A stretch of 64,000 nucleotides of DNA, from NCBI GenBank assembly GCA_965218825.1, contig OZ244656.1:836965-900964 (forward strand), written 5' to 3'. Below the pieces are notes generated by a model. That model was not told the DNA's origin and made no database searches. It was given only the letters and a program-made list of their open reading frames with translations. How positions within the stretch are numbered: the stretch's first letter is position 1; each line of letters begins with the position of its first letter. A program made the translations under genes and the position numbers. The stretch comes from Vicinamibacterales bacterium. GTDB lineage: Bacteria; Acidobacteriota; Vicinamibacteria; Vicinamibacterales; UBA8438. Shown here one piece after another: positions 1,301 through 32,588 of this stretch.

Positions 1301-1556
1301 TCGTCCGATCCCGCGTGGGTGACCGCAGGCCGTGCCCAGAGACGTTCGCTGTCCCGAACATGCGGCCGAACTGGTCAGCAACGAAACGACCTCGACGCCC
1401 GCCGCGGCCGCGAGTGTGGAGGTATCGACACCAACGGGTCGGCGTGCGCCGTCCCCCCCCACCCCCGAATCTCGTCCAGCTGCGCGGCCTGACCGTCCGC
1501 CCACCTTTACGCGCAGTTTCGCAAAATTCGATTTTCTAATTTTAGGACGACCCCCT

Positions 1557-1913
1557 ATGAACATTGACGAAAAGCCCGAGATCCCGGCCATGTCGATCCG
1601 GATCTGGCTGGAAACGACGGTCATTTCGCGCAAAACGATCCCCGAGCGGACCCTCCGCCGCAGCCGCGCCGCAGCCCGCGCGAAGTGGCCGGTGTATCTG
1701 CCCGACGTCACCTACCGGATCGAACGGCTCCCGCAGCCGCGCCGCGCCTACGGGCGGACCTGGACACAGCTCGCCCGCGACAACTTTCTCGCCAGTTTCC
1801 CCCCCGGCATTCCGCCCTGGGCCTGTGAAGCCCTGAAACCCGCGCACCGCCCGCGCACCGCGACGCTCGAGGAACTCCTCGCGACCTATACGGAGGACGA
1901 ACGTGCTACCTAA
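1557..1913 (+). CDS. orfA family small protein (118 aa), possible DNA-binding/regulatory protein
   Basis: Conserved start MNIDEK. Conserved core ..TxISRKTIPERTLRR..RAKWP.Y..DV.YRIERLP..RR..GRTW.Q.ARDNFLASFPPGIPPWA.EALKP. Paralogs at 9007, 12515 and 50540. Confidence 0.7.
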   Translation: MNIDEKPEIPAMSIRIWLETTVISRKTIPERTLRRSRAAARAKWPVYLPDVTYRIERLPQPRRAYGRTWTQLARDNFLASFPPGIPPWACEALKPAHRPRTATLEELLATYTEDERAT

Positions 1914-1969
1914 CTACACCTAAGATCGGCGACCTCTCGGCCCTCAAGGCCACGGCCACGATCCTCACC

Positions 1970-2137
1970 ATGGCCTCGGAGCTGCACAGCGCCACCGCCC
2001 GCGCCGCCGAGATCGCCATCAAGACCAAGAACGCGCGGATCATCCGGCAGCTCGACCACCTCTTGAAGACGATGACGCGGGAGCTTAACGAGATCCCGGC
2101 TCCGCCACCTCCGCCACCCGAGCTGGTCGAATCATGA
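1970..2137 (+). CDS. orfB family small helical protein (start uncertain; no canonical start further upstream in frame)
   Basis: ..ATATILTMASELHSATARAAEIAIKTKNARIIRQL.. is homologous to orfB at 9353, 12043 and 12861. Its stop TGA overlaps the next ATG (ATGA). Confidence 0.45.
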   Translation: MASELHSATARAAEIAIKTKNARIIRQLDHLLKTMTRELNEIPAPPPPPPELVES

Positions 2138-2349
2138 GCGGCAAGACGGGGACGCCGATCGCCCTCGATGCGGTCGTCCCGGGCGGCATCTGGCCCATCG
2201 ACCACGATCCCGGGTACGACGAGACCTGCAGCCGATGCCGCCGTGCGATCCCGGAGGACGAGGTCCCACTGCTGCTCTGGCTCCCGCCCGACCAGACCCG
2301 GATGCTCGCCTACTGTGAGCGCTGCCTCGCTGCCATCGGGATCGGATGA
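2134..2349 (+). CDS. Small zinc-ribbon-like protein (71 aa), present only in copy 1
   Basis: Two Cys pairs (CSRCRR ... CERC). ATGA start/stop coupling to both neighbours. Confidence 0.5.
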   Translation: MSGKTGTPIALDAVVPGGIWPIDHDPGYDETCSRCRRAIPEDEVPLLLWLPPDQTRMLAYCERCLAAIGIG

Positions 2350-2786
2350 GCGGCCGCCAGCACAAAAAGAAACGCGCCCGCGAGCGGGCAGGCTACGTGC
2401 GCCGCTTCCTGACGAGCTACCTCGCCGTGCTCCGCCAGATCCTCAAGCGCGCCTGGCCCGACTATGAGCGCCGCCATCCGGGCACGCCGGGTCCCGGCCA
2501 CACTTGCGCGTTCAACCCGAGCACCGACAGCTGGCCAGGATTCGAAAAGGCCGCGCTCGGTCTCATGGACGCGATCCGGGAGGACAAACCGTTCTACTGC
2601 CACGAGCGCCTCCCCACGAGACCCAACGGTGACTGGTATTGGGACCCGACGCTCCCGCCGCCGGCCCGCTGCCGTGGCTGGGAAGCGATCGCCGCGCACC
2701 CCGAGACCAAGGGCGCCGCGTTCACTGCCATCAAGGGACTGGGTCCCGTCCCTACCAGATCCAGGCGCCGGGAACTGCCGCGATGA
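2346..2786 (+). CDS. orfC family protein (146 aa), unknown function, Cys/His-containing
   Basis: Paralog of 13127..13570. Shared motifs include RQILKRAWP.YERRHPGTPGP.HTCAFNPSTD and KPFYCHE ... ARCRGWEAIA. Confidence 0.65.
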   Translation: MSGRQHKKKRARERAGYVRRFLTSYLAVLRQILKRAWPDYERRHPGTPGPGHTCAFNPSTDSWPGFEKAALGLMDAIREDKPFYCHERLPTRPNGDWYWDPTLPPPARCRGWEAIAAHPETKGAAFTAIKGLGPVPTRSRRRELPR

Positions 2787-2870
2787 AACACAACCCGAAC
2801 AAGGGCACGCCCCGCGGCCGCAAGGCGATCCGTGCCTCGCTGGTGACCGCCGGCCGCTCGATCGTCGTCG
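2783..2870 (+). pseudogene. orfD (ParB-like nuclease) truncated after ~28 codons
   Basis: MKHNPNKGTPRGRKAIRASLVTAGRSIVVD matches the N-terminus of 13587..14141. Similarity then stops at the IS3 fragment. Confidence 0.7.
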
Positions 2871-3067
2871 ACCGGGTGGACATCGTCACGAGAGGCCAGC
2901 TCCGCCATCGTCACCTCTTCCCGGAGCGCCTCCCGCGCTACTGTTGCCTTCAGCTCAACCGGATAGCTCCGTCTCTTTCGTGGCATTCCAGATTCCTCCT
3001 GTCGGATCTGGACTCCACCTTAACAACCTGTCTGAAAATCGGGGTCCACCTCTGTCGTCCACAGTGA
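2870..3067 (-). mobile_element. IS3-family fragment (left end plus first ~39 codons of orfA)
   Basis: MPRKRRSYPVELKATVAREALREEVTMAELASRDDVHPV is a typical IS3 OrfA N-terminus. The upstream end reads tgtggacgacagaggtggaccccgattttcag (TG-initiated IR-like). Confidence 0.6.
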
Positions 3068-3071
3068 GCTA

Positions 3072-4175
3072 TCAGAAGCGGTTCGCAGTGATGATCAGTG
3101 ACGTTCGATGACCGGCGAAAAACGCCTCGCGGTCGATGACCACGTGATCATCCTCCACCATCACGCCCGGACCAGTCGCAGCAGAAGTCAGTTCGCACGC
3201 CGCAATCACGCTACCAGGCCCGTTGGGCAGCACGGTCTCGATTGCCTCACCGGGTGTGACCGTCACGTGCTTTCGTCCGGCTGCTGAAATCATCATTCCT
3301 CGGCGGAGAGCAAGCGTGTGCTCGAGGAGCCGTGGATCGGAGACCGGCCGGCCTCCTTCGAGACCAAGCGATGTGCGCGTGGCAACTGACAAGTCGATCA
3401 ATCCGTCCGGTCGTACTCGCCCACGAAGGTCAGCCGCAACCCTCAAGGTCACCTCACAGGTGGTCCCCGTGATTGGCCAGGAAAAAGGGACGAAGTCAGC
3501 CGATGCCAGCTTGCCGTGTCGGGCGGTGGTCTTCGCGACTCTCGTCGTACGCGCGCCGCTTGCATCCTCGTGCACAGCCCAGATCTCGTACGCGAGCGGT
3601 TCGTTGGCGAGATCTCGGTCGTCGACCGGCGAGGCCTCCACCTCAACCGTCATTGACACAATGTCAGGGCGGCCCGTCGGGCAGGTGCCAGGAGTCGCGG
3701 CGACGTAGTCAAGCACATGCCGGTCGTCCTCCGTAAGCGTGATTTGCCGCTCATCGCCCGCAATCATCTGGGTGACGCCGTCCGCGTCTCGGCGGTGGCG
3801 GCGCCAGTCGAGTTCGAAGGCAACGGCGTCGGTCACGGTGGACACGAGGCGGATATCAAACGTCCACAGGTAGCCGTCAGTGGACATCGTCTCGAACAGT
3901 GGCGACCCAGGTGTTGGGAACTCGCCGAAGTGGGTGTGCCACGTGCAGAGCGTGTCAGCAGACCATAGCCAGACGCTATTGGACTCTCCGGGGTCAAAAA
4001 ACACCCCTATGCTCGTCATCCTGCGGGCGGCGCCCTCCCGCCAGGTGACCATACCGTTGATCATGACCCGGGCACGCGTGGACTCGGCTTGGGACGTGGC
4101 GACCTGCGCGAGCCCGTCAGGCACGAGCCAGAAACTGAGCGTGAGGACAAGCATGAATCGACGAAATGGAGACAT
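3072..4175 (-). CDS. Secreted protein of unknown function (367 aa)
   Basis: N-terminal signal-peptide-like MSPFRRFMLVLTLSFWLVPDGLAQ. Lies downstream of the sigma/anti-sigma pair. Confidence 0.6.
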   Translation of the reverse strand: MSPFRRFMLVLTLSFWLVPDGLAQVATSQAESTRARVMINGMVTWREGAARRMTSIGVFFDPGESNSVWLWSADTLCTWHTHFGEFPTPGSPLFETMSTDGYLWTFDIRLVSTVTDAVAFELDWRRHRRDADGVTQMIAGDERQITLTEDDRHVLDYVAATPGTCPTGRPDIVSMTVEVEASPVDDRDLANEPLAYEIWAVHEDASGARTTRVAKTTARHGKLASADFVPFSWPITGTTCEVTLRVAADLRGRVRPDGLIDLSVATRTSLGLEGGRPVSDPRLLEHTLALRRGMMISAAGRKHVTVTPGEAIETVLPNGPGSVIAACELTSAATGPGVMVEDDHVVIDREAFFAGHRTSLIITANRF

Positions 4176-4180
4176 CTGAG

Positions 4181-4567
4181 CTACCTCGGAAGAGAGATCG
4201 ACTCGGTGGACTGCCAGTCCACGCCGGGCTCAAATTCGACAATCCGTACGGGTACCGGTGGGCCGTCAACGGGTGGTTCCACGAACGTCGAACCAGCCCA
4301 TAGACCCACGGCGGCCGAAAACACGAGCCCGGCAGCGAATCGCCAATTGATCCAGTGGCCGACACGGGGCCCTCGTTGAATTAGCAGCGGCCTTACGCGC
4401 CCATAGAACGCCTCACTCGGGTGGGCATCGCTCTGGGTGGCGGCCCGGAGGCGCAGGAAATCGATGGCCGCGTGCTGACCGCTAGGAGTGTCAAGCAAAC
4501 CGAGAATCGCGGCCGTGCGCACCTCTTCGCCGTCAAAAAACGCCGACAACAGGTCTTGCTCGTTCAT
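4181..4567 (-). CDS. Putative anti-sigma factor (single transmembrane segment)
   Basis: N-terminal MNEQDLLSAFFDGE (zf-HC2-less anti-sigma style). Hydrophobic segment WRFAAGLVFSAAVGLWAG. Sits 10 bp downstream of the ECF sigma gene. Confidence 0.6.
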   Translation of the reverse strand: MNEQDLLSAFFDGEEVRTAAILGLLDTPSGQHAAIDFLRLRAATQSDAHPSEAFYGRVRPLLIQRGPRVGHWINWRFAAGLVFSAAVGLWAGSTFVEPPVDGPPVPVRIVEFEPGVDWQSTESISLPR

Positions 4568-4576
4568 GGGTCACCT

Positions 4577-5122
4577 TTATACGAAATGTACGGAGAAGGG
4601 TTGCAACGCTGCCCGTAGTGCGGCGCGCATACGGCAGATGCGGGACCGGACCGCCGCAGGGGTCAGATTACAGACCGTGGCGATCTCCGCGTAGCTGAGC
4701 CCGGCGATTTCCCGAAGAAAGAAGACCTCGCGATCGATCTCGCCGAGTTGATCGAGTGCTTGGTCGATCGCCACAGATAGTTGTTGCACGGGCGGTGTGG
4801 CCGCGTCACGGTCGGTTAGTTCAGCCACGGCACCGCGACGGCCGGTGGTTCGCTGGTGATCGAGCAGCAGACGCCGCGCGATTTCGAACAACCATGCCCG
4901 ATCCCGATTCCTCGGTTCGTAGTTCCCCAGGCCGCGTACAGCCCTGACGAACACGTCCTGCGTCAGATCCTCGGCAACGTCTCGCCGGCGTGTCATTCGC
5001 CAGAAGTAGCGGAAGATGACGAGATGGTGCCGCTCAAACAGCACTGCGCCTGGATGCTCGCTCCCCACCTGTCTCCTCACCGCGCTACCTCTTATAACGC
5101 CGGGAGGGGCGAAAGCTCTCAT
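4577..5122 (-). CDS. RNA polymerase ECF-type sigma-70 factor (181 aa)
   Basis: Region 2 ..DVAEDLTQDVFVRAVRGL..F.....AWLFEIARRLLLD and region 4 REVFFLREIAGLSYAEIATVCNLTPAAVRSRICRMR. The start was chosen at the internal Met MRAFAPP; the longer 272-aa ORF runs into IS debris. Confidence 0.85.
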   Translation of the reverse strand: MRAFAPPGVIRGSAVRRQVGSEHPGAVLFERHHLVIFRYFWRMTRRRDVAEDLTQDVFVRAVRGLGNYEPRNRDRAWLFEIARRLLLDHQRTTGRRGAVAELTDRDAATPPVQQLSVAIDQALDQLGEIDREVFFLREIAGLSYAEIATVCNLTPAAVRSRICRMRAALRAALQPFSVHFV

Positions 5123-5186
5123 GATGGGACTGTCGGCCGAGCCGGCCGGCCAGCTCGGCGGGATGAGCGTCTCCGGGGCCGGTGGT

Positions 5187-5732
5187 CGGTATATCCCAAG
5201 CTGCTCTGCGCGCGGACGGCGTTGTAGTGGCGCCGCCAGTCTTCGATCAGGACCTGGGCCTCCTGCAGGGTGTAGCAGATCTCTCCATCGAGGAGTTCGT
5301 CGCGCAGCCGCGCGTTGAAGCTCTCGATGTGGCCGTTCTCCCACGGCGAACCGGGCTCGATGAAGGCCGTCTGGGTCCCGACTGCGGCGATCCATTGCTG
5401 GACGGCCTCGGCCACGAACGCCGGCCCGTTGTCAGACCGGATGTACGCCGGGATACCGCGCAGGATGAACAGGTCGGTCAGCACGTCGATGACATCGGTC
5501 AACGAGAGCTGCCGCCGAACCAGGATCGCCAGACGCTCGCGGGGTCCATTCCGGGGACATGGGTACCGCTACGCCGGCCAACCGGTGCGCTGAATCTCGG
5601 CTCAGACTCCTCAAGATACTTCCGTACGGTGTTGCGGCTGACGCCGAGCTCCAGCGCGACAGACCGACGGCTACGACCCTGCTTCAGAACGGCGTGGCAA
5701 CCACCAGGCCCTGCATAACCAATTGAAAACAT
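5187..5732 (-). pseudogene. Juxtaposed IS remnants: an HTH N-terminus (IS21 IstA-like) and an rve-domain C-terminus (IS3/IS481-like)
   Basis: LKQGRSRRSVALELGVSRNTVRKYL (HTH). A different frame gives IRSDNGPAFVA...IEPGSPWENGHIESFNARLRDELL...RAQSSLGY (integrase core end). No continuous ORF. Confidence 0.6.
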
Positions 5733-5966
5733 GGGTGAAGTCGAGACAAAAACGCCCTTAGCTAGGACAGCCCCATAAAGATTGACTCGCCCGCCCGCCT
5801 GAGCTAGCCTTTCCTTGCCAAGCAACTCCACAGATGACTCGACATCGGGTCGCCCGTGGAATAGCACACCCCGTCAAGGGGAAATACACGGGAACCTCAG
5901 CACATCTGTGGGTTGTTTGGCAACGGGCCCGGTGACCACTTCCGGTCACGGGCGAAGGAGGTTGCC

Positions 5967-6428
5967 ATGAAGAGAGCCCTCGCGACCGTCTGCCTGCTCG
6001 GGATGATCGCGGCGAGCCTGCCAGCCGCAGACACGATTGAGTTTCGGAAGGTCGACTACTTCGAGGCCGTCACCAACCGCGACGGTGAGCCAGACGAGAA
6101 AAAGCGCGACGCCCGCATGGAGATCGATCCAGACGCGCAGCTGATCTGGATCGTTCATGAGAAGGACGGCGCGGAGAAGGCCACCTATGCGGAGATTCCC
6201 TTCGCGGCCGTGACGAGCATCGTCTACGAGCGGGCGAAGTCCCCGCGGGTGAAGACCGCCATCTTCCTCTCCCCGCTAGCCCTCTTCTCCTCTGGCAAGA
6301 AGCACTGGCTCACCATCGAGTATGAAGGTGGCTATGCCTATATGCGGCTCGACAAGAAGAACCAGCGTCAACTTCGGGCCGCGTTAGGGGCCGTGGGATT
6401 CGAGGTCGAAACGATCATCGAGGACTGA
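5967..6428 (+). CDS. Small secreted protein, unknown function (153 aa)
   Basis: Shine-Dalgarno gaaggagg lies 6 nt upstream. Signal peptide MKRALATVCLLGMIAASLPAAD. Confidence 0.6.
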   Translation: MKRALATVCLLGMIAASLPAADTIEFRKVDYFEAVTNRDGEPDEKKRDARMEIDPDAQLIWIVHEKDGAEKATYAEIPFAAVTSIVYERAKSPRVKTAIFLSPLALFSSGKKHWLTIEYEGGYAYMRLDKKNQRQLRAALGAVGFEVETIIED

Positions 6429-6440
6429 AGACCGCTAGAT

Positions 6441-6990
6441 CGGCGAACATGCGGCCGAACTGGTCAGAAACGAAACGACCTCGACGCCCGCCGCGGCCGC
6501 GAGTGTGGAGGTATCGACACCAACGGTTCGGCGTGCGCCGTACCCCCCACCCCCGAATCTCGTCCGGATGAGCGGCGTGACCGTCCGCCCCCCTTCACGC
6601 GCATTTTCGCAGAATTCGATTTCGAAAATTTCGGACGACCCCCCATGAACATTGACGAAAAGGCCGAGATCCCGGACATGGCGATCGCCACGTGGCCCGA
6701 AAAACCACTCATTTTGCGCAAAACGATGAGCGCACGCCACCTCCGCCGGCGCCGCGCCGCCGCCCCGCCGCCCCTACGGACGGACCTGGGCACAAGTCGC
6801 CCGCGACAACTTCCTCGCCAGCTTCCCGCCGGGGATTCCGCCCTGGGCCTGTGAAGCCCTCAAACCCGAGCACCGCCCGCGCACCATGACGCTCGCGGAG
6901 CTGCTCGAGCCCTACACGGAGGACGAACTTGATGCCTACTACTACTGACACCCCCGTCGATGCCCTACTGGCCGCAGCCACGATCTTGAT
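6441..6990 (+). repeat. Modular repeat unit, copy 2 (R leader without L; frameshifted orfA; first ~15 codons of orfB)
   Basis: Homology begins at cggcgaacatgcggccgaactgg and ends shortly after ..ctactactactga.. within orfB (..AAATIL). Confidence 0.8.
6645..6948 (+). pseudogene. orfA family, disrupted by an internal ~60-nt deletion causing a frameshift
   Basis: MNIDEKAEIPDMAIATWPEKPLILRKTMSARHLRRRRAAA is followed by out-of-frame sequence. The segment encoding REKWPMYMADVAYRIERLP is missing. The C-terminal ..TMTLAELLEPYTEDELDAYYY* is readable in another frame. Confidence 0.75.
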
Positions 6991-7070
6991 GGGCTGGACG
7001 CAGCAGCGTAGAAGTGATTACCTTCAAACCACTGTCCAAGAACCCTGGGGCGGTACATGAGGTACTAACG

Positions 7071-8492
7071 ATGGAGTTGATGGAGTTGATCGCCCGCGCG
7101 CCGTGGCGCGAGGCGGTGACGTACCGCGAGACGTGGCCACACGAGTATGTGCTCATCAAGCAGGACAAGCAGCGGGAGCTGCTTGCCGCGATATGCGCCA
7201 GAATCGCGAATGGCGAGGGGATCGAGGGGCGATTCTTCAGCCGGACATCCGCATACCTGTTCATCGGCGGGTACAAGTACTGGCCCTACACGCCGTGCGA
7301 CGAGATCGACCTCGACGCCACCGAGGACGAGGTCGTGCTCAACCGCGCGCCGCTGTACCGGGACCGCCGGGACTTCGTGATTCGGGCGGGCGATACGGGG
7401 ATAAGAGAAGAGGGTGAGGAGGACGAGCCGATGACGGAGACGCGCGAGCCCGACACGCTGCTGGCCCATCTCGCGGAGAAGCTCTCCCATCGCCACGAGG
7501 ACATTGCTGTTGAGGCCCTCGGGTACATCTTCCAGTCCAGGGCGGCACGCCGTGTCATGGAGGAGGTGTTGCGAGACGGCGGCGCAGAAGTTGGACCGAT
7601 CGAACAAGTGCGGACCCAGGTCAGTGAGGGGCAGACGCGTCCAGACCTCGTTGGTGTTGATCAACACAACAAGGAATGCCTGTTCATCGAGGCGAAATTC
7701 TGGGCCGGACTCACCGAGCAGCAGCCCACCGCCTATCTCGATCGGCTGCCGCCACACACGGCGCTCTTGTTCGTCGCGCCCGCCTCGAGGATCGAACTGC
7801 TCTGGGCTGAGCTGCGCCGCCTGGTCGGAGCCGACGGCCCGCGTCCCGCGTCTGAGACGGCGGCGGTCAGAAGCGTCCCGACGGCCGGCGCGCGGCACCT
7901 GATGCTGACCAGCTGGGCGCACCTGCTCGAACGCCTCGATGGCGCCGGCGACTCGCACACCACAATCGCCGTACAGCAACTGCGAGGGCTGACCAAGATG
8001 AAGACTGAGGAAGCATTCCACCCGCTCCATCCGGACGAACTCGACCCCAAGGTCCCGCGTCGGTTGCTCAGCCTGCAGCGGCTCGTCGACGACGCCACAA
8101 ACCGCGCAGTCGATGACACAGCTGGCCCAGTCACGACGACGTCCACTAGTTATGGTCGGTACTTGTCTATTGCCGACGCCGCTGCGTGGTTTGGCATCGA
8201 ATTCGATTGCTGGGCTTATCCCTCGTATCCCAATACGCCCCTTTGGCTGTGTTTCCAAGAAGAATGGCGTTCAGAGGAATCGCGCCCATTCGGCGAGATT
8301 CGCCGTGCGCTTGAGCCACTTAAGCAGAAAGCCTCCAAGGAATGTTTCGAGGAGGACGGGGCGTTGTATGTCCCTATCGAGCTCAAGGTACGAGTCGAGT
8401 ATGACGCGGTGCTCGAGGCCGTGGTCACACGTCTCCAGGAGGTCTCGGATCTGATCAGCGCGGCCGGGGGCGCGTCGAGCCCAACGGGGTAA
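7071..8492 (+). CDS. Hypothetical two-domain protein with a PD-(D/E)xK-like nuclease motif
   Basis: The central RPDLVGVDQHNKECLFIEAKFWAG fits D...(D/E)xK. The N-terminal ~130 aa (..ETWPHEYVLIKQ..) is unassigned. Start chosen at ATG 7071; the ORF track starts at 7014. Confidence 0.5.
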   Translation: MELMELIARAPWREAVTYRETWPHEYVLIKQDKQRELLAAICARIANGEGIEGRFFSRTSAYLFIGGYKYWPYTPCDEIDLDATEDEVVLNRAPLYRDRRDFVIRAGDTGIREEGEEDEPMTETREPDTLLAHLAEKLSHRHEDIAVEALGYIFQSRAARRVMEEVLRDGGAEVGPIEQVRTQVSEGQTRPDLVGVDQHNKECLFIEAKFWAGLTEQQPTAYLDRLPPHTALLFVAPASRIELLWAELRRLVGADGPRPASETAAVRSVPTAGARHLMLTSWAHLLERLDGAGDSHTTIAVQQLRGLTKMKTEEAFHPLHPDELDPKVPRRLLSLQRLVDDATNRAVDDTAGPVTTTSTSYGRYLSIADAAAWFGIEFDCWAYPSYPNTPLWLCFQEEWRSEESRPFGEIRRALEPLKQKASKECFEEDGALYVPIELKVRVEYDAVLEAVVTRLQEVSDLISAAGGASSPTG

Positions 8493-9006
8493 GGCGTCGT
8501 ATCGAGCGTGGATCTACAAAGAGCGGGTGGGCCAGCAATGCGTTTCTCTTATTTGGACAGAAGTCACGAATACCTGGCTGCGTTCGATGAGGCCGCAACG
8601 GAAGGTCGGTGAAACCGCTGGCGTAGCCGGTCACGCGGCCACGCATTCCACCCGAAGCTGAGGACTGCAAGGAAGGTGTCCCACAGCCACCGGGCGGCTT
8701 CACCAGCGAGCCGAAGGATACGATAGAGGTCGATGCCAAAGGTTCATCTCTAGGAAAATCAACATCTTATTTCTGAGTGTGCCTCGGGTCACGTTGTTCT
8801 CGTCGGCGAACATGCGGCCGAACTGGTCAGCAACGAAACGACCTCGACGCCCGCCGCGGCCGCGAGTGTGGAGGTATCGACACCAACGGCTCGGCGTGCG
8901 CCGTACCCCCCCCACCCCCGAATCTCGTCCGGATGAGCGGCGTGACCGTCCCCCCTTGCGCGCAGTTTCGCAGAATTTGATTTCGAAAATTTCGGACGAC
9001 CCCCCT

Positions 9007-9372
9007 ATGAACATTGACGAAAAGGCCGAGATCCCGGACATGGCGATCGCCACGTGGCCCGAAACCACGCTCATTTCGCGCAAAACGATGACCGCGCGCC
9101 ACCTCCGTCGACGCCGCGCTGCGGCCCGCGAGAAGTGGCCGATGTATATGGCCGACGTGGCCTACCGAATCGAACGGCTCCCGCCGCCCCGCCGCCCCTA
9201 CGGACGGACCTGGGCACAAGTCGCCCGCGACAACTTCCTCGCCAGCTTCCCCCCGGGGATTCCGCCCTGGGCCTATGAAGCCCTGAAACCCGAATTTCGG
9301 CCGCGCACCATGACGCTCGCGGAAATCCTCGAGCCCTACACGGAGGAAGAACTTGCCGCCTACTACTACTGA
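9007..9372 (+). CDS. orfA family small protein (121 aa)
   Basis: MNIDEKAEIPDMAIATWPETTLISRKTMTARHLRR...EILEPYTEEELAAYYY*. Intact paralog. Confidence 0.7.
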   Translation: MNIDEKAEIPDMAIATWPETTLISRKTMTARHLRRRRAAAREKWPMYMADVAYRIERLPPPRRPYGRTWAQVARDNFLASFPPGIPPWAYEALKPEFRPRTMTLAEILEPYTEEELAAYYY

Positions 9373-9574
9373 CGAGTCGCTTCGGAGCGCCGAAGCCGAA
9401 CTTCAGGTCACGCTGGAAACCAATCACGCCGTCTCCAGGCTCTTCAGCGCGATCGCCATGCATAACAAGGCCATCGGGCTCGCCGCCGGGAGCGCCATCG
9501 AGAGCAAGGACCTCGCGATGATCCAAAATCTTCGGGGCCTCCTGGTCCTGATGACCGACAGCCTCGATCTCTAG
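9353..9574 (+). CDS. orfB family small protein (73 aa; TTG start overlapping the orfA end)
   Basis: (M)PPTTTDESLRSAEAELQVTLETNHAVSRLFSAIAMHNKAIG.. The stop codon TAG is supplied by the L junction gatcTCTAGgaaaatc. Confidence 0.55.
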   Translation: MPPTTTDESLRSAEAELQVTLETNHAVSRLFSAIAMHNKAIGLAAGSAIESKDLAMIQNLRGLLVLMTDSLDL

Positions 9575-9955
9575 GAAAATCAAAATCTCATTTCTGAGGT
9601 GCCTCGGGCCACGTTGTTCTCGTCGGCGAACATGCGACCGAACTGGTCAGAAACGAAACGACCTCGACGCCCACCGCTGCCGCGAGTGTGGAGGTATCGA
9701 CACCAACGGCTCGGCGTGCGCCGTCCCCCCCACCCCCGAATCTCGTCCAGATGAGCGGCGTGACCGTCCGCCTACTTTTGCGCGCAGTTTCGCAAAATTC
9801 TATTTTCGAATTTTCGGACGACCCCTTATGAACATTGACGAAAAAGCTGAGATCCCGGACATGGCGATCACCACGTGGCCCGACACAACGCTCATTTCTC
9901 GCAAAACGGTCACCGCGCGCCACCTCCGCCGGCTCCGCGCCGCGGCCCGTCGGCG
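9566..9955 (+). repeat. Modular repeat unit, copy 4 (L, R, orfA truncated after ~42 codons)
   Basis: Head-to-tail with copy 3. orfA starts at 9828 (MNIDEKAEIPDMAITTWPDTTLISRKTVTARHLRRLRAAAR). Similarity is lost near 9955. Confidence 0.8.
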
Positions 9956-10358
9956 TCCAGACCCAGGCCCGCAAGGCGTCGCCGTGGGGCGCCAGATCCG
10001 CCATCGGGACCCGGATCGTCCCCGGGCGCTCGACCCGCGCCTCGACCGTGGCGATCAGCCGCGCGATCCGGTCTGGGTCGAGCGTGCAGCGATAGACGTC
10101 GCGGAGCGTCACCCAACGGGCCGCGGCCATCCGGTGCAGCTCGAGAATCCAGCGCACGAGATTGACGTACGCCTGCCAAAACGGTTCTTTGCCCTTACCG
10201 AAGAGCTGGTTAATCAGGGAGATATTGCCAAATGTTGTGTCATGTGCGACCGTTGGTGATTGTCGGCGTCGCCCGGTCGGTCTGATCCGCCGCCGCGGCC
10301 GCGAGGTCGTGCATCCGCGCTTGGGGTGGAACGCATTGGCCGGGTGAGGGGCCTAATC

Positions 10359-10826
10359 ATGAAGAAATCCATTCTTGAAATTTACGCTTTAGCGGTCTGT
10401 TTTGTGGCTCTGGTATGCTTTGTCATTGCACTGGGGATCGGAGTGTACGACCTGATACAAATCGCCAACCCGGTGTTTACGATCAATGCGTACGAATACG
10501 ATCGACACCAGTCTAATGAAGCCTTTAGAAGGTTTCCGGGGCTGCATGGAATGGTAGGACCACGCCATCTGGCCTTCGGTTCCGGCGGGACCACTGGCGA
10601 AGTTGTTATCGAACCTGGAATTCCTATAGAACCTACGGCACCAGCAGCAAAAGAAGAGGTCACTCGACAGCGGGAAGAGAGCTACCAAGCGGCACTTCGG
10701 TCAGAGCGAAGGCGAGGGATGCAGAGTGTTCTACGGGTCGTGATTATCCTGGTGATCGATGTGCTGGTGTTTGTGCCTCATTGGTTCTTGGCCAGGAGAA
10801 TAAGAGATGCAAGCATGGTCAGCTAA
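10359..10826 (+). CDS. Small membrane protein, unknown function (155 aa)
   Basis: Hydrophobic N-terminal (ILEIYALAVCFVALVCFVIALGIGVY) and C-terminal (VLRVVIILVIDVLVFVPHWFL) segments. Locally AT-richer than the flanks. Confidence 0.55.
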   Translation: MKKSILEIYALAVCFVALVCFVIALGIGVYDLIQIANPVFTINAYEYDRHQSNEAFRRFPGLHGMVGPRHLAFGSGGTTGEVVIEPGIPIEPTAPAAKEEVTRQREESYQAALRSERRRGMQSVLRVVIILVIDVLVFVPHWFLARRIRDASMVS

Positions 10827-11185
10827 CGCACTTGTTCTCGCCATTTACCCAGGGCGCCACGCATACTACGTCAGGCCCTATGCATCCACCCAGGAGCCTT
10901 CGCCATGATTGGCACCCTCACAAGGAGCTCATCCAGGAGGACTGCCGCGGATAGAGATGGCACACCGGTCGGACCGGCGCGGGGACACGCCGCCCCGAAG
11001 CGTGGCCAGCAGGGCCATACGAACGATTGGCATCCCCCCCCGCGACTTCCATCGTGGCCCGGAACACTGAGCGTTCCACCGAGGGGCCGAAGATACAACT
11101 GCAGTCTGATTACTGTGCCGTCTCGACGCGAACGATACACTTGACGGGAGAAGCCCAGATACGCTTCGGCTACCGACAACCTCGA

Positions 11186-12005
11186 TCAGAGATCGTCGAT
11201 CGTTGCCCCTATCGCCGCGGTCTCTCCATGCGTTAGGCCGTCGTTCCTCCCCTCGAACGCTCCGCCAGTGTGCATCGCAAACTGCGACGCTGCTCGGTTC
11301 TGAAACTCTCCCTGCACCGTTCGGCGACGCGCGAACGAGAGAATGCAGGCGGCGCGCGCCCTCGTAATTGAGACGTACAGTAGGCGCGTCGCCTCAAGAA
11401 GCTGGGCAGGATAAGGTGTCTGGTGTTGGTTCGGCAGAAGGCCGTGCTCAAGCCCGGGGATAAACACGACGCGCGCGGACAGGCCCTTGGCTCCGTGCAT
11501 CGTCATAACTCGCACGCGATCCAGCTCCGGTGGCACATCCGCCGGGTCCACGCCCAAGCGCGTCGCCACTGCGCGGAGCACCTCGTTGCGCTGTTGCGCG
11601 TTATCGACCCAGATGTAGTCCCGCAACTCTGAAAGTAGCATGCCGTCAGCGAGTGGCGCGGCACACGCGTTCCACGCGGCCGACGCATCTGCGTCAATCG
11701 TCGATTCCACAATCGCACGCAGAGCGTGACGCCGCTGGCCGAGCGTATCCATAGGCGCCCAAGTGGCAATGGTGGCGCACGTCTGTCTCGCATCGTTAAG
11801 CGCATTCACTGAGCGCGTCGATAGCACTCCGTCCGGCAACTGGTCGTAATACAACCCACGAAAACTCGTCTGCGGCGTCGCGACAACGGCGGCACGTATG
11901 CTGTTACAGGTGCCGATGCCGACACCGCTCTTGAGTCCTAGCAACGTGCGGTGGGCGACAAGATCAGCCGGAATGCCGTTCTCGTCACGAGAGCCGATGA
12001 TGCGC
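11186..12005 (-). pseudogene. UvrD/Rep-type SF1 helicase, C-terminal fragment only
   Basis: VRVMTMHGAKGLSARVVFIPGLEHGLLP and LLYVSITRARAACILSF (helicase motifs V/VI). The reading frame continues upstream without a helicase N-terminus and abuts a partial modular repeat at ~12005-12011. Confidence 0.7.
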
Positions 12006-12010
12006 GACGA

Positions 12011-12251
12011 GGAGATCCTCGAGCCCTATACGGAGGAAGAACTTGCCGCCTACTACTACTGACGAGACCGACGACGCCCAAGGAATCCTCAAGATCATCA
12101 AGGCCACGGCGACCCTGCTCGCCGCGTCCGCCGAACTGCACAGCGCCACGTCCATCGCGGCGGAGGTCGCCATCAAGAGCAACGACCAAGGGAACATCCT
12201 GCAGGCGCAACACAGAATGCGCGTGATGGCGGAACAGCTGCGCAAACTCTC
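12011..12251 (+). repeat. Modular repeat unit, partial copy 5a (last 13 codons of orfA plus orfB)
   Basis: gagatcctcgagccctatacggaggaagaacttgccgcctactactactga, then orfB (ORF 12043..) ..ATATLLAASAELHSATSIAAEVAIKSN.. This orfB is out of frame with the L-junction TAG and reads through to 12441. Confidence 0.7.
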
Positions 12252-12514
12252 GATCTCTAGGAAAATCAAAATCTCATTTCTGAGGTGCCTCGGGCCACGT
12301 TGTTCTCGTCGGCGAACATGCGACCGAACTGGTCAGAAACGAAACGACCTCGACGCCCACCGCTGCCGCGAGTGTGGAGGTATCGACACCAACGGCTCGG
12401 CGTGCGCCGTACCCCCCCACCCCCGAATCTCGTCCGGATGAGCGGCGTGACCGTCCGCCTACCTTTGCGCGCATTTTCGCGAAATTCGATTTTCAAAATT
12501 CCGGGCGACCCCCG

Positions 12515-12880
12515 ATGAACATTGACGAAAAGTGCTCCACCCCGGCCACGGTGGCACAGATTTGGCCCGATACGACGCTCATTTCGCGCAAAACGATCCC
12601 CGAGCGGACCCTCCGCCGACGCCGCGCCGAGGCCCGCGCGAAGTGGCCGATGTACATGGCCGACGTGGCCTACCGGATCGAACGCCTCCCGCCGCCGCGG
12701 CGGCGACACCGACGGACCTGGGCCGAGCTCGCCCGCGACAATTTTCTCGCCAGCTTCCCCCCCGGGCTTCCCCCGTGGGCCTGTGAAGCCCTGAAACCAG
12801 AATTTCGGCCGCGCACCATGACGCTCGCGGAGATCCTCGAGCCCTACACGGAGGAAGAACTTGCCGCCTACTACTACTGA
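12515..12880 (+). CDS. orfA family small protein (121 aa)
   Basis: MNIDEKCSTPATVAQIWPDTTLISRKTIPERTLRRRRAEARAKWPMYMADVAYRIERLPPPRR...AAYYY*. Confidence 0.7.
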   Translation: MNIDEKCSTPATVAQIWPDTTLISRKTIPERTLRRRRAEARAKWPMYMADVAYRIERLPPPRRRHRRTWAELARDNFLASFPPGLPPWACEALKPEFRPRTMTLAEILEPYTEEELAAYYY

Positions 12881-13130
12881 CCCCGACGCCGAGTCGATAC
12901 GGCTCACCGCAGCCGAACTCCAGTTCGCGATGGAAACCAACCAGGCCGTCGCCCTGCTCTTTGGCGCGATCTCCATGCATCACCAGGCCATCGGGCGGGC
13001 CGCCGCGCCCGCCATCGCGAGCGAGGACATCGCGGTGATCGACAAGCTTCGGCACGTCCTGGTCGAGATGACCAAAATCCTCGAGGAGCTCGCGCAGCCC
13101 GCCACGGCCGCGCCGACGGTCGAATCATGA
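12861..13130 (+). CDS. orfB family small protein (89 aa)
   Basis: (M)PPTTTDPDAESIRLTAAELQFAMETNQAVALLFGAISMHHQAIG.. The end overlaps the orfC start (ATGA). Confidence 0.55.
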   Translation: MPPTTTDPDAESIRLTAAELQFAMETNQAVALLFGAISMHHQAIGRAAAPAIASEDIAVIDKLRHVLVEMTKILEELAQPATAAPTVES

Positions 13131-13570
13131 GCGGCCGCCGGCAGAAGATGAAACGCGCGCTCGAGCGCCAGCGCTACGTGCAGCGGTTCATGGCGACCTA
13201 CATCGCCGCGTTGCGCCAGATTCTGAAGCGCGCCTGGCCGGCGTACGAGCGGCGCCATCCGGGCACGCCCGGCCCCTGCCACACCTGCGCGTTCAACCCG
13301 AGCACGGACGCCTGGCGCGGATTCGAAAAGACCGCCTTCGGGCTCATGAACGCGATCCGGAAGGGCGAGCCGTTCTACTGCCACGAGGGCCTCACCAGGA
13401 GCTCCACCGGCGAGTGGTACTACGACCCGGCGCTCCCGCCGCCCGCCCGCTGCCGAGGCTGGGAGGCGATCGCCGACGAGCCCGAGACCGCCGGTGCCGC
13501 GGGCGTGGCCGCCAGGAAGATTGGTCCCGCCCCGACGTGGCCCTGGCGCTCGAAGCCGGAGCCCCGATGA
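13127..13570 (+). CDS. orfC family protein (147 aa), unknown function
   Basis: Paralog of 2346..2786 along its full length. Confidence 0.65.
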   Translation: MSGRRQKMKRALERQRYVQRFMATYIAALRQILKRAWPAYERRHPGTPGPCHTCAFNPSTDAWRGFEKTAFGLMNAIRKGEPFYCHEGLTRSSTGEWYYDPALPPPARCRGWEAIADEPETAGAAGVAARKIGPAPTWPWRSKPEPR

Positions 13571-13586
13571 CGGGAGTCTGCGGCCT

Positions 13587-14141
13587 ATGAAGCGCAATCC
13601 GAACAAGGGCACGCCCCGCGGCCGCAAGGCCATCCGCGCCTCGGTGGCCACCTTCGGCGCCGGCCGATCGATCGTCGTCGACAAGGACGGCGAGATCATT
13701 GCCGGCCATCATACCGCCGAGGCCGCCGACGCCGCCGGCCTCAAGCGCACGGTCGTCGACACGACCGGCGAGGAGCTCGTCGTCGTCCAGCGGACCGACC
13801 TCGAGGCCGGCGATCCCCGCGCCACCGGACTCGCGCTCGCCGACAACCGCACCGGCGACCTGAACCGCCGGTGGGACGCCCGCCAGGTCCAGGACGACGC
13901 CGGGCTGCTCGACGCCTCGACGCTCCAGATCTTCGCCCCCGTCGAGATGGCCGACTTCGCCGCGGAGCTCAACACGCCCGCCGCGGCCGCCGAGCCCGCC
14001 GACGATGACCACACCGTGCGACTGACGTTCGAAACGACGGACCAGGCCGCCCGCTGGGCCGCCTGGCTCGCGCGCCTGGCCGCACTCTTCCCCGAGGAGA
14101 CGACGCATGAAGCACGCATTGCCCGCGCACTTGATCTCTAG
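13587..14141 (+). CDS. orfD: ParB-like nuclease domain protein (184 aa)
   Basis: MKRNPNKGTPRGRKAIRASVATFGAGRSIVVDKDGEIIAGHHTAEAA..GL resembles the ParB/Srx N-terminal domain of phage ParB-like nucleases. Start taken at the internal ATG of ORF 13494..14141. Stop TAG lies inside the L junction. Confidence 0.65.
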   Translation: MKRNPNKGTPRGRKAIRASVATFGAGRSIVVDKDGEIIAGHHTAEAADAAGLKRTVVDTTGEELVVVQRTDLEAGDPRATGLALADNRTGDLNRRWDARQVQDDAGLLDASTLQIFAPVEMADFAAELNTPAAAAEPADDDHTVRLTFETTDQAARWAAWLARLAALFPEETTHEARIARALDL

Positions 14142-14453
14142 GAAAATCAAAATCTCATTTCTGAGGTGCCTCGGGCCACGTTGTTCTCGTCGGCGAACAT
14201 GCGGCCGAACTGGTCAGCAACGAAACGACCTCGACGCCCGCCGCTGCCGCGAGTGTAGAGGTATCGACACCAACGGATCGGCGTGCGCCGTACCCCCCCC
14301 CACCCCCGAATCTCGTCCGGATGAGCGCCATGACCGTCCGCCGCCCCTTGCGCGCAGTTTCGCAAAATTCGATTGCGCTATTTTCGGACAACCCCCCATG
14401 AACACTGACAAAAACGCCGAGATCCCTGCCACCGAGATCGCGATCTATCTCTA
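14133..14453 (+). repeat. Modular repeat unit, copy 6 (L, R, orfA reduced to 18 codons)
   Basis: Head-to-tail after copy 5. The mini-ORF 14398..14454 (MNTDKNAEIPATEIAIYL*) ends where a further L motif begins. Confidence 0.8.
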
Positions 14454-14479
14454 ATCTCTAGGGAAATCAAAATCTCATT
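14454..14479 (+). repeat. Isolated L junction motif (atctctagggaaatcaaaatctcatt)
   Basis: Same ~26-nt motif that opens copies 3-7. Here it is followed by unrelated sequence leading to the 3' end of the IS91-family transposase gene. Confidence 0.75.
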
Positions 14480-14750
14480 GTTGGTGGGTCCAGACACGAA
14501 TCGAGCAGAGTCCGCCGGCACGCGATAAACGAGGTGCGGCGGTAGGTGCGCTGTCATGGTGCCGGAGACGATTCTCCGACGGCCCTGAAGCGTGCCCTTC
14601 AGTGTGCGGGACGAATCTTGCGCCCCGGAGGGCGTCAAATCTCTTGAGGCTGACGGTTCGGGAGACCGCTGGGGAGGCGTTCTCGCGCGCGAGCAGCCAA
14701 TCAGTTCGAGGGCGGGTCAGCTCGTGGCGAGAGCCGGCACCGGCCCCTAG

Positions 14751-15863
14751 CTAGGCGCCAGTTCGTGCGGGGGACACCCGACGAGTCCAGCGCATCCGCT
14801 GGCCGGCGCGGTCGAGGAGGGGATCGACGCCGAAGCACTTTTGCAGTGACGTCGCCCACCGCAGTGGTCTCGGCTTCCCCAGCCGCTGCTGCCCCAGGAG
14901 CGCGAAGACCGCATCGTGGGTCTGCCCCTTCACGCGCGGCGCGAGGAGCCCAAAATACCGAATACCGTGGCGGTAGCGGTCGGGGATGTGATCGGCCAAG
15001 GTGGCCAGGAACACCGCTGGCGTGTACGTGGTCTCGACCACCCGTTTCGTGCGGGTGTCCTTCGTCATAAAGCATATTTCTTGACGGCCGATCGTGCGAA
15101 ACCGGTGTTGCGCGATCGGGGGGCGTCGAGCATACCGGCCCGCATATCCGAGGAACTGCTGCTTGCTCCGAAACCGTCGGATGTGGATATTCCACCAGCG
15201 CTCTGACTGTGCGGTGAGCAACTGTCGCAACGCGGGGCGAGACATGTCAGTGTCGAGCACCCTCCGCCGCGCGGCCTCCCGCAGGAACGTGATGACCGCG
15301 TCGCGCCACATCGCCATCAGGGCCTGCCGGTTCAATGGGGCTCGCGGCCGCCAGCCACGCCCATCCTCGTGGAGGCCGCCCTCGGAGACGAGGATATGCA
15401 AATGACAGTTGAAGTTCAGGTGGCGGCCAAAGGTATGGGGAATGACCATGATCATCAGGCGGATGCCGTATGTCTGCCGCGCCCACAGCTGGAGCACCTG
15501 CGCGCCCAGGACGGGCAGATCGTGCAGGAGATGCCGATTGCGCCGGAACACCGGCCACAGCACATCCGGCATGGTGAAGCACACGTGCGCGTAGGGGACG
15601 TCGGGGAGTTCCCGCCACTGGTCCCGCTGCCACGCGCGGGTGGCCTGATGCCCGCAACTGGGGCAGGCCCGTGATTTACACGTGTGATACACAACCCGCT
15701 CCTCCCGCTCGGAGGCAAAGACCTCCGCGCCGAGAGCTGCAGTGCCGCACGTGAGGACCTTCGCGAACGCCTTCCGCGCGTCGGGGCGGGTCTCGTCGCG
15801 GTCCCAGAGATCCTGATGTCGCTCGAGGAGCTGTCTGAGCGGGCGCGGGCTACCGTGGGCCAT
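14751..15863 (-). CDS. IS91-family Y2/HUH rolling-circle transposase (370 aa)
   Basis: Zinc-binding N-terminus YHTCKSRACPSCGHQ. HUH-type IPHTFGRHLNFNCHLHILV. Tyrosine motif GYAGRYARRPPIA. Confidence 0.85.
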   Translation of the reverse strand: MAHGSPRPLRQLLERHQDLWDRDETRPDARKAFAKVLTCGTAALGAEVFASEREERVVYHTCKSRACPSCGHQATRAWQRDQWRELPDVPYAHVCFTMPDVLWPVFRRNRHLLHDLPVLGAQVLQLWARQTYGIRLMIMVIPHTFGRHLNFNCHLHILVSEGGLHEDGRGWRPRAPLNRQALMAMWRDAVITFLREAARRRVLDTDMSRPALRQLLTAQSERWWNIHIRRFRSKQQFLGYAGRYARRPPIAQHRFRTIGRQEICFMTKDTRTKRVVETTYTPAVFLATLADHIPDRYRHGIRYFGLLAPRVKGQTHDAVFALLGQQRLGKPRPLRWATSLQKCFGVDPLLDRAGQRMRWTRRVSPARTGA

Positions 15864-16776: not shown

Positions 16777-16988
16777 CGCCCGCCCTCCGGGCGCTCACTC
16801 GTATGCTGGCGTGTTTGCTGGGCCAGCCAGCGTTCGAGATCGGAGCGCCGATAGGCGACACGTCGGCCAACCTTGACAAACGAGGGCCCGGTGCCGGTCG
16901 ATCGCCAGCGCTCAAGCGTCCGCGCGTTTGACTTCAGGAGGCTGGCGGCCTCCTCAGGGACATACAGCGGATCGGGCAGGTCAGGCAT
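16773..16988 (-). CDS. AlpA/excisionase-type helix-turn-helix protein (71 aa)
   Basis: LYVPEEAASLLKSNARTLERWRSTGTGPSFVKVGRRVAYRRSDLERWL. Start at the internal Met of ORF 16773..17186. Confidence 0.7.
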   Translation of the reverse strand: MPDLPDPLYVPEEAASLLKSNARTLERWRSTGTGPSFVKVGRRVAYRRSDLERWLAQQTRQHTSERPEGGR

Positions 16989-17091
16989 ACGGTTGGTCTC
17001 CCGCGGCCTCTCACGGAGCCGATGGGGCAAAGCCTGCCAGAATGAGAGCCTAAAGTGTGGGGACCAATCAGCGGCGTTTTGGTCCCCACTC

Positions 17092-19025: not shown

Positions 19026-19172
19026 CGCCGTGTCCTGCCCCCGCGCATCTAGCTACCGTATAGCTACCACGTGGACGCGGATTCACGCGGAGCCATGCGG
19101 GCATATTACCATGATAATTCCCATGTAATGGACTCATGCGGGAGTATGCGAGACGACGCGGACAAGACGATA

Positions 19173-19221
19173 TTGATTCGTAATCAGCAGGTCCGCGGTT
19201 CGAGTCCGCGCGCCGGCTCCA
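19173..19221 (+). other. Orphan 3' half of a tRNA-Thr(CGU) gene (att-like remnant)
   Basis: ttga-TTCGTAA-tcagc / aggtc / CGCGG-TTCGAGT-CCGCG / cgccggc-t-cca corresponds to anticodon loop (CGT), variable loop, T arm, acceptor 3' strand and CCA. No complementary 5' acceptor strand (gccggcg) or D arm lies upstream. Confidence 0.65.
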
Positions 19222-32579: not shown

Positions 32580-32588
32580 GGGTGGCTC

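Follow-up and report, generated by a model that had tools for sequence, protein, structure and literature searches.

Repeated leader-orfA units in a Vicinamibacterales genome as probable transposase-less derivatives of an IS91-family rolling-circle transposon

In our study, a stretch of 64,000 nucleotides from a Vicinamibacterales bacterium (assembly GCA_965218825.1, contig OZ244656.1, positions 836,965 to 900,964) was found to contain repeated units composed of a short junction element (L), a non-coding leader (R) and the open reading frame (ORF) orfA, followed by variable cargo. The whole stretch is called the window, and positions are counted from its first nucleotide. The copies probably arose by insertion of a derivative of an IS91-family rolling-circle transposon that carries genes but no transposase, and they are stacked beside one another and beside a transposase-carrying relative. 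They represent a new lineage and variant of known mobile DNA, and not a new RNA or a new system. A preliminary description of the window, made from the sequence alone, had tied a small mobile element to the adjacent IS91-type HUH transposase, and this link agreed with our results, as L is the origin end of that family and the junction targets fit.

The leader together with the start of orfA was present in seven copies (c1 to c7, from left to right), all on the + strand, as found by repeat search, self-BLAST and alignment. The leader starts, in the D2 register, were at 1327/1355, 6416/6440, 8779, 9599, 12285, 14166 and 50309. Five copies contained L, which is ~33 nt long, lies directly 5' of R and starts with the same nucleotide in every copy (8746, 9567, 12253, 14134 and 50277). 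A further, lone L, termed L', was found at 14454. Copies 1 and 2 were without L and without the first ~55–60 nt of R. Pairwise identity among the copies ranged between 62 and 98%. Window positions 14130–19221 were 97% identical to L007, an independent assembly (related loci are designated by L with three digits), and the region comprising c2, its cargo ORF g13 and c3 was 91–95% identical to L010 and L004. Since the copies have diverged by 2–38% and their arrangement partly recurs in independent assemblies, the repeats are real and do not reflect a collapsed or expanded repeat, and the assembly artefact considered in the preliminary description is set aside. Its seven copies in one orientation were borne out, as was the precise head-to-tail joining at L, which was seen at c3/c4 and at c4'/c5/c6/L'. 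Direct abutment was limited to these places, and the lengths of the units concerned were 820, 2686 (including 2 kb of replaced DNA), 1881 and 320 nt, which does not correspond to the single array of a ~1.9-kb unit proposed earlier. The copy at 12252 (c5) had been regarded as the only complete unit. The fullest relative, however, was found in L009 (9742–12781), with a length of 3.04 kb and seven small ORFs, some of them extra when compared with c5, and the orfD gene of c5 depends on the next L for its stop codon.

The L element reads ATCTCTAGGAAAATCAAAATCTCATTTCTGAG, and the bases 5' of it set out the target pattern, for example CTTG directly followed by ATCTCTAGGAAAATC. Junctions of L were gathered from the window, from loci of four Vicinamibacterales metagenome-assembled genomes (MAGs), from one JGI contig and from ENA contigs encoding orfA or the transposase. 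GTTC, CTTG or CTCG was present directly before L in 24 of the 31 independent junctions (GTTC 7, CTTG 9, CTCG 8, other 7), and T was conserved at position 2 in all 31. The first 25 junctions contained GTTC, CTTG and CTCG seven times each and four other tetranucleotides (GTCT, GTGC, CTCT and ATCT). L016 and L023 contributed one CTTG and one CTCG, with no GTTC and no other tetranucleotide, and L024 contributed one CTTG and three others (CTTC, ATCT and CTCT), with neither GTTC nor CTCG. In the first 27 junctions, from the window and 14 other contigs, 23 were canonical before A-TCTCTAGG (binomial p about 1e-37), against a background of 1.6% of positions for the three tetranucleotides together in the same DNA. 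No target duplication was seen at the junctions, where the check was only partial since the right ends of the solitary units are undefined. These junctions match what has been published for IS91, in which GTTC and CTTG are the leading targets and CTCG comes next, T at position 2 never varies, and the target adjoins oriIS without being duplicated (PMC13181058).

The lone L' (14454–14480) and about 270 nt after it (together 14454–14750, + strand) form the oriIS-type end of the transposase element. L' and L agreed at 25 of their first 26 nt, and the sequence that follows in L' was unrelated to R. The adjacent gene (14751–15863, - strand, 370 aa) encodes an IS91-family Y2/HUH transposase with the Pfam domains Y2_Tnp (E=2.9e-32) and Zn_Tnp_IS91 (E=3.9e-18), an HLH (HUH) motif, a YAGRY tyrosine pair (YxxxY) and a CxxC...CxxC cluster. 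Annotated IS91-family transposases on plasmids shared 34% identity with it across 97% of its length. L' is situated 265–297 nt beyond the transposase stop codon, the place that oriIS occupies in IS91. An L-like end was found 200–310 nt 3' of the Y2 stop codon in five lineages whose proteins were 75–98% identical, and the first of these, with the L-like end downstream of the Y2 gene, comprises the window, L007 and L024. In the lineage of L010, L011 and L012 the protein was 82% identical to the window transposase and the bases after the end, read in the tnpA sense, were GAAC. The corresponding values were 83% and CAAG in L023, 77% and CAAG in L006, and 75% and CGAG in L016. The L end was kept while the rest of the transposase elements was down to 72–76% nucleotide identity.

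The common first nucleotide of L, the IS91 tetranucleotides before it and its position near the Y2 gene together argue for a transposon end, and L is the oriIS-type, transposase-distal end of an IS91-family element. The transposase element itself is classified from its sequence as a member of the IS91 family on three counts, namely the kind of enzyme, the place of its origin end and the targets next to that end. In the L010-type element, the 82 nt from the start of L were 85% identical to L+R, and the 5' third of the leader, in effect the first ~50–80 nt of L+R, can therefore be assigned to the origin as subterminal sequence. The earlier idea of the leader as an origin or recombination site holds for L and for the first ~50–80 nt of R, with L shared by the transposase elements and tetranucleotide targets before it. 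Subterminal palindromes in or near L were short hairpins only, TCA-TTTC-TGA in L and GCC-TCG-GGC just after it, with one compensatory change in L013.

The units started exactly at L and stopped at differing points, each on a target-like tetranucleotide. Unit c1 (1355–2990, + strand, as are the other units) was without L and contained R from about position 61 (1355–1556), orfA (1557–1913), an orfB-like stretch (~1922–2137), a Zn-ribbon ORF (2134–2349), orfC (2346–2786) and, from 2783, the first ~33 codons of orfD, after which the homology was lost. Unit c2 (6440–8745), also without L, contained R from about position 54–57, right after the internal CTCG of R, followed by a frameshifted orfA (6645–6949) and the cargo ORF g13 (7014–8492, 492 aa). 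Its right end was GTTC, just 5' of the L of c3, and the orthologous unit in L004 contained an intact L. Unit c3 (8746–9566, 820 nt) contained L (8746–8778), R to 9006, orfA (9007–9372) and orfB cut at ~codon 75, with GTTC before the unit and CTCG at its end. In unit c4 (9567–12252), L, R and the first ~41 orfA codons (9828–9949) were followed by 2.06 kb of unrelated DNA (9950–12007) with a UvrD_C fragment (11186–11944, - strand); the unit resumed with the orfA tail from 12008 and with orfB cut near codon 70, and ended in CTCG. Unit c5 (12253–14133, 1881 nt) contained L, R, orfA (12515–12880), orfB (12861–13130), orfC (13127–13570) and orfD (13587–14141). The orfD gene possessed 183 of about 189 codons, with its stop codon inside the next L, and the unit ended in CTTG. 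Unit c6 (14134–14453, 320 nt) contained L, R and 18 orfA codons (ATG at 14398), and its end was a stutter of partial L starts (ATCT ATCTCTA) before L'. Unit c7 (50277–51235) contained L, R, orfA (50540–50911) and other downstream cargo. Its insertion point lay behind a CTCG where a DDE (DUF772/DDE_Tnp_1) transposase gene has its 3' end, and a unit in L001 was 90.7% identical to c7. The orfA remnants of the preliminary description (the frameshifted, cut and 18-codon copies and the tail at 12008) were all present, as were its UvrD fragment and its sigma factor, the last being an ECF sigma factor gene (4577–5395, - strand) among the intervening genes.

The stutter before L' occupied positions 14443–14453 and was followed directly by the full L, ATCTCTAGGG, the two together covering 14443–14463. 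A similar stuttered partial L, GATCTCTA followed by TCTCTAGG, was present in L024 near 20993 (- strand), and the stutter pieces were the first 4–7 nt of L. The stutters at these two junctions may have been left behind when the nick site was cleaved and rejoined repeatedly.

No transposase gene was found in any unit with Pfam and NCBIfam, the longest unit (that of L009) included. The cargo after orfA varied and consisted of orfB-Zn-orfC-orfD, the 492-aa protein or other DNA. The genes interrupted by units were orfC (at two different places, in L002 and L010), orfB, orfD, orfA and the DDE transposase gene. The solitary units (c7, L004, L008, L013 and L014) contained a single L, at the left end only, even when 9 mismatches in 32 were allowed. 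With an end shared with the transposase copies, no transposase of their own and more than 25 distinct flanks, the units correspond to a non-autonomous derivative, which would be mobilised by a partner.

The exact start at L and the variable stops on tetranucleotides match one-ended or prematurely terminated rolling-circle transposition. By analogy with the IS91 family, the Y2/HUH transposase would nick the + strand of the window between GTTC, CTTG or CTCG and the A of L (ATCTCTAGG...), and rolling-circle synthesis would displace the + strand rightwards from L. Synthesis would end at a ter site, at any similar tetranucleotide or past the proper end, and the released strand would be joined 3' of another such tetranucleotide elsewhere. 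Units bearing L could be moved in trans by the Y2 element. Early termination would give the truncated units of 320, 820 and 1881 nt, and late termination may have given the differing cargo after orfA. In IS801, truncated origin-containing products of 229, 360 and 679 nt, ending at target-like tetranucleotides, made up 26% of events, and longer products took flanking DNA along (PMC3189936). The terminal tetranucleotide of a unit, or the junction before a resident L, would be a ready site for the next origin end. Because each unit ends in a suitable tetranucleotide, insertions would build up precisely head-to-tail.

Comparison of loci pointed in the same direction. The block 14130–19221, which contains c6 and the transposase module, was abutted at L by c5, ending with CTTG in orfD, and the same block in L007 was abutted at L by a unit ending with CTCG in orfB. 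In L024, the same transposase lineage was abutted by another unit, which had a full orfA and ended with CTTG. The junctions at L thus appear to be the sites of change. The remainders of the truncated units were not found to the right of the block, which makes it more probable that products already truncated were inserted than that complete units received nested insertions. The rolling-circle concatemers and the plain segmental duplication suggested previously were not supported. Neighbouring units differed by 5–15% and were truncated at different points, which argues for separate events and not for one concatemer; plain duplication leaves the exact L boundaries, the target tetranucleotides and the interrupted genes unexplained.

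The conservation of the leader was calculated as the mean pairwise identity of 11 copies of the common type from several genomes. The identity was 97.2% in L, 96.3% in R 34–90, 96.8% in R 91–158, 88% in R 159–215 and 80% in R 216–262, the A/T-rich stretch before ATG, whereas the codon positions 1, 2 and 3 of orfA showed 83, 85 and 71%, respectively, or about 80% for orfA as a whole. The identity of R(1–158) was higher than that of orfA in 55 of 55 pairs, and the two were uncorrelated (r = 0.04). The leader had been described as being as conserved as the coding parts; the conservation was confirmed but the equality was not, the leader (96–97% at positions 1–158) being higher. The most diverged leaders (L002b and L015) kept three blocks, namely poly-C/CCCCGAATCTC, GTGACCGTCCGCC and the TTTCGC-AAATTCGATTT repeats just before ATG, and these blocks can be read as the orfA promoter/operator and 5' untranslated region (UTR). 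The last ~100 nt of the leader are probably the orfA promoter/5' UTR, and the A/T-rich TTTCG-repeat part before ATG is most likely the promoter/operator together with the 5' UTR. The poly-C run of R ranged between 6 and 9 C in different copies and genomes (for example at 12410–12416, 14293–14301 and 1454–1461), and it could be a slippage-prone expression switch if it lies within the orfA promoter/5' UTR. Positions ~80–158 may be so conserved because mobilisation requires a longer cis sequence, because they contain a regulatory site or because recombination has homogenised the copies, and gene conversion is a possible contributor to the uniformity of R.

R was found to be neither coding nor detectably structured. 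A hidden small protein in R was considered and rejected, as the length of the poly-C run varied, the variable sites were without codon phase (11/10/7) and no frame was kept between the R1 and R2 variants. The only Rfam gathering-level matches in the window were a tRNA and an ALIL pseudoknot (36963–37085; RF01497, 86.6 bits), which is the signal for frameshifting in an IS3-family element, and none was found in R. Single-strand folding of R gave z = 0.23 and 0.16 for the two strands when compared with shuffled sequences, and the RNAalifold consensus was weak, at -16.3 kcal/mol with an unfavourable covariation term (+0.73). Terminator-like hairpins in R were no commoner than in shuffles. The structured 5' UTR or functional RNA of the preliminary description was therefore not supported, there being no Rfam match, no excess folding and no covariation.

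The orfA gene is a real gene; its sequences fall into 70 clusters, many of its residues never vary, and it has no relatives outside the group. No match was found in Pfam, NCBIfam or PADLOC for orfA, orfB, the Zn-ribbon ORF, orfC, orfD or the 492-aa protein, and PDB sequence searches of orfA–D and g13 gave no match. The structure model of orfA had a low predicted local distance difference test score (pLDDT, 64.5). For orfD, one of 39 homologues matched ParB_N (E=0.0075), the AlphaFold2 model had a pLDDT of 84, and the top four PDB fold matches were to Spo0J (E=0.5–0.8, template modelling score 0.21). With such matches, the label of ParB-like nuclease given earlier to orfD is unproven, and the term nuclease-like for the g13 protein (given as 474 aa) was unsupported by these searches. 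The orfD protein had 167 homologues beyond this lineage. Further orfA paralogues (P0022, P0032, P0033 and P0041) were listed for the same 5.4-Mb contig and are not encoded in the window. In P0022, orfA was cut at codon 104 and ran into a reverse-strand reading of L+R, which indicates an inverted L insertion elsewhere in the genome.

The transposase gene was found to be part of a module on the - strand. Upstream of it were orf308 (15850–16776), which overlaps the tnpA start, an HTH_17 protein gene (16773–17186), orf248 (17092–17838) and a P4-type tyrosine integrase gene (17835–19025) with an Arm-DNA-binding domain. This gene order recurred in L007, L010, L011 and L024, and in L016 a gene for a sigma-54-type AAA protein was present in place of orf248. 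A tRNA-Thr(CGT)-like 3' half (19176–19221, + strand), an att-like remnant, formed the right edge of the 5.1-kb block shared with L007. The fragment lies 170 nt upstream of an intact tRNA-Arg(CCT) (19391–19467). No intact tRNA-Thr and no second att copy were found in the window, so the left end of the island is missing or rearranged. The integrase was probably responsible for the tRNA-Thr-linked island that carries the transposase, and not for the array. Integrase-driven tandem accretion at the tRNA was examined and rejected, as only one att-like tRNA-Thr fragment was present and none was found between the units.

Several observations weigh against the interpretation of the units as rolling-circle passengers. 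The transposase element of the window shares only about 26 nt with L+R, and if the subterminal region is needed for recognition, the cognate transposase may be of the L010 type, which is absent from the window. No conserved sequence or palindrome was found before the tetranucleotides that end the units, and no ter end was defined for the transposase element or for the units. The right edge of the shared block is the tRNA-Thr fragment, which points to the integrase rather than to a ter site; in the comparisons of ter ends (window/L007, L010/L011 and L006) the boundaries fell at the tRNA fragment, the integrase start codon and the contig end. Positions ~80–158 of R were 97% conserved and were kept in the L-less copies 1 and 2, which a role as origin does not explain, and no sigma-70-type promoter was detected in R. 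The orfA gene, with its many invariant residues, is under purifying selection, and to our knowledge non-autonomous insertion sequence (IS) derivatives are usually without a conserved, selected operon. The missing downstream remainders fit truncated products, although deletions could have removed them as well. Mobility is deduced from old insertions, as the search yielded neither an empty site nor an excised circle nor an identical copy of recent origin.

Other explanations were considered for the same observations. Ordinary paralogous operons could have arisen by repeated segmental duplication, with R a promoter/5' UTR kept uniform by gene conversion and L a preferred IS91 insertion spot. The decoupling of R identity from orfA identity is typical of concerted evolution, the mosaic L010a shares R at 91.5% with c3 and orfA at only 48%, and copies 1 and 2 keep R without L. 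However, near-identical L+R sequences were present, with unrelated flanks, in eight or more genomes belonging to different species-level MAGs, for which conversion within a genome cannot account. The left boundary was moreover exact to the nucleotide with IS91 targets before it, and L ended transposase elements without R or orfA nearby (L006, L016 and L023); this explanation is unlikely. It is still somewhat less likely that L is the attachment site of the neighbouring tyrosine integrase and that the units were excised and re-integrated as cassettes by conservative site-specific recombination. The P4-type integrase gene and the HTH_17 (excisionase-like) gene always accompany the Y2 gene, stacked units are bounded by L on both sides, and there is a precedent in GIsul2, whose integrase mobilises units linked to ISCR2 so that they become stacked at an att site (PMC9376610). 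Integron cassettes are moved by IntI in a comparable manner. The solitary units nevertheless had one L each, on which ground L as a two-ended att site was rejected. The att remnant of the island is unrelated to L, the variable flank obeys the IS91 tetranucleotide rule and is not a shared core, R folds unlike an attC site, and an IntI-type integrase was not present.

The leader could instead be a functional nucleic-acid structure, either a cis-regulatory RNA, a small RNA or an Frpo/ssi/sso-type single-strand DNA promoter or origin on the displaced strand. Extreme conservation without coding potential was found in R, each of two small hairpins (TCA-TTTC-TGA in L013 and CTCG...CGAG in the R2 variants) showed one compensatory change, and a second-strand origin would benefit a rolling-circle intermediate. 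This is very improbable in view of the Rfam, folding and RNAalifold results given above, and the long hairpin that defines Frpo/ssi was not present. The Frpo/ssi single-strand promoter of a conjugative leading region, which the repeated non-coding leaders in front of small genes and the possible ParB-like protein had brought to mind, was rejected as a candidate because no long hairpin (about 200–300 nt) and no conjugation genes were found in the window. We give equally little credence to an autonomous L-R-orfA–D unit, in which orfD, the Cys/His-rich orfC or another product would act at L as a novel nuclease or recombinase, with the Y2 transposase merely sharing the end. Every unit contains orfA, which is under selection, orfD has homologues beyond the lineage and faint ParB-like signals, and units were present in contigs without a Y2 gene within 10 kb (L008, L009 and L013). 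Many units, however, are reduced to L-R-orfA fragments with junctions still canonical, the cargo after orfA is inconstant (g13, c7-type or orfB–D), no catalytic domain was detected in Pfam, NCBIfam, PADLOC or PDB, and the junction specificity is exactly that of IS91-family enzymes. A further, doubtful proposal is that the integrase-HTH-orf308-Y2 module with L' is an HUH-driven cassette-acquisition platform that captures L-R cassettes head-to-tail, and that R ~80–158 is a new cis element for capture, second-strand synthesis or expression. If true, the platform would be a rolling-circle counterpart of the integron, with cassettes that bring their own leader/promoter, orfA and variable cargo.

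The window was found to be a dense patch of mobile and defence-type genes. PLD-ResIII, SNF2 helicase and Mrr-ResIII helicase genes were present at 21755–22999, 41903–43372 and 53702–57181, and the related loci L008, L009, L011, L013 and L014 contained type I restriction-modification, AIPR, BREX with SIR2, a TIR protein, GmrSD and an MmeI-like gene. The units seem to live in hot spots of defence genes and mobile elements. A CRISPR array (48295–48810) contained nine perfect 28-nt repeats (GGCTTCCCCGCACACGCGGGGATAGACC) and eight 33-nt spacers, and an IS transposase gene starting at 48825 adjoined it. No match was found between the spacers and the units or any of the fetched loci. A second, unrelated IS91-family element (30502–34200) contained a tyrosine recombinase gene (31623–32579) and a Y2 transposase gene (32589–33797), the product of which was 28% identical to the first transposase. 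It was flanked by 84-nt direct repeats (30502–30585 and 34117–34200) that were 81% identical. A 133-nt segment (62177–62309) was 96–98% identical in L001, L003 and L007, which come from different genomes, and probably represents one more small element of the mobile or repeat type.

The family is confined to the Vicinamibacterales (Acidobacteriota). Among 185,579 species genomes, L+R was found in four Vicinamibacterales MAGs, and it was also present in one JGI metagenome contig; no match was found in viral contigs or plasmids. The transposase element resembles IS91, IS801 and IS1294 in its Y2/HUH transposase with a Zn-binding N-terminus, in its two distinct ends without inverted repeats, and in an origin end downstream of tnpA that is abutted by GTTC, CTTG or CTCG without target duplication. 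As with orf121 of IS91, an accessory ORF (here orf308) overlaps the tnpA start, and truncated or extended products that begin with the origin end and finish on tetranucleotides are likewise known from IS91 and IS801 (PMC13181058, PMC3189936). In contrast to these elements, the units carry a conserved operon (orfA with or without orfB–D) and not transposase fragments, and the transposase gene belongs to a module of ~5 kb, the other genes of which encode a tyrosine integrase, an HTH_17 protein and two products of unknown function. About 160 nt by the end are ultra-conserved here, whereas about 82 bp suffice in IS91, and multi-unit head-to-tail stacks and an acidobacterial host are further differences. 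ISCR/CR2-sul2 in GIsul2 is similar in having an IS91-like gene at the end of a tyrosine-integrase island, adjacent genes that travel as units and stacking at a single site (PMC9376610). The GIsul2 integrase, however, moves its units between 19-bp att sites, whereas a single L and tetranucleotide flanks were found here, and in ISCR the cargo adjoins the transposase gene on its ter side, whereas our units are without that gene.

Non-autonomous Helitrons likewise have short termini shared with an autonomous partner, captured genes and short specific targets without duplication; they differ in the helicase domain of RepHel, the AT dinucleotide target and the 5'-TC...CTRR-3' termini, and the comparison made here is one of general features. 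Integron cassette arrays share the head-to-tail order in one orientation, a conserved non-coding site in each unit, an adjacent recombinase gene and variable cargo. Here, however, the integrases present were P4-type with an Arm-DNA-binding domain and not IntI, R was without excess folding and there was no folded attC, the site lies upstream of the genes and includes a leader, and the junctions are of IS91 type. When compared with the described IS91, IS801 and ISCR elements, the new features are the transposase-less, operon-carrying partners, the ~160-nt ultra-conserved end, the embedding in an integrase module, the stacks and the acidobacterial hosts.

Most of what is known about the IS91 family and ISCR comes from the plasmids of proteobacteria, in which resistance and virulence genes are spread by one-ended transposition. 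Our results point to IS91-type chemistry in soil Acidobacteriota in three unusual forms, namely a transposase within an integrase module, operon-carrying partners and precise stacking. The L element and the tetranucleotide rule let annotators delimit Vicinamibacterales elements that are now seen as unexplained repeats and hypothetical proteins. The ~160-nt segment near the end, which is more conserved across species than the adjacent gene, is a candidate for a new cis-acting requirement. The stacks are a natural record of rolling-circle starts, stops and landings, which is useful for studying the poorly understood end recognition and termination in the IS91 family.

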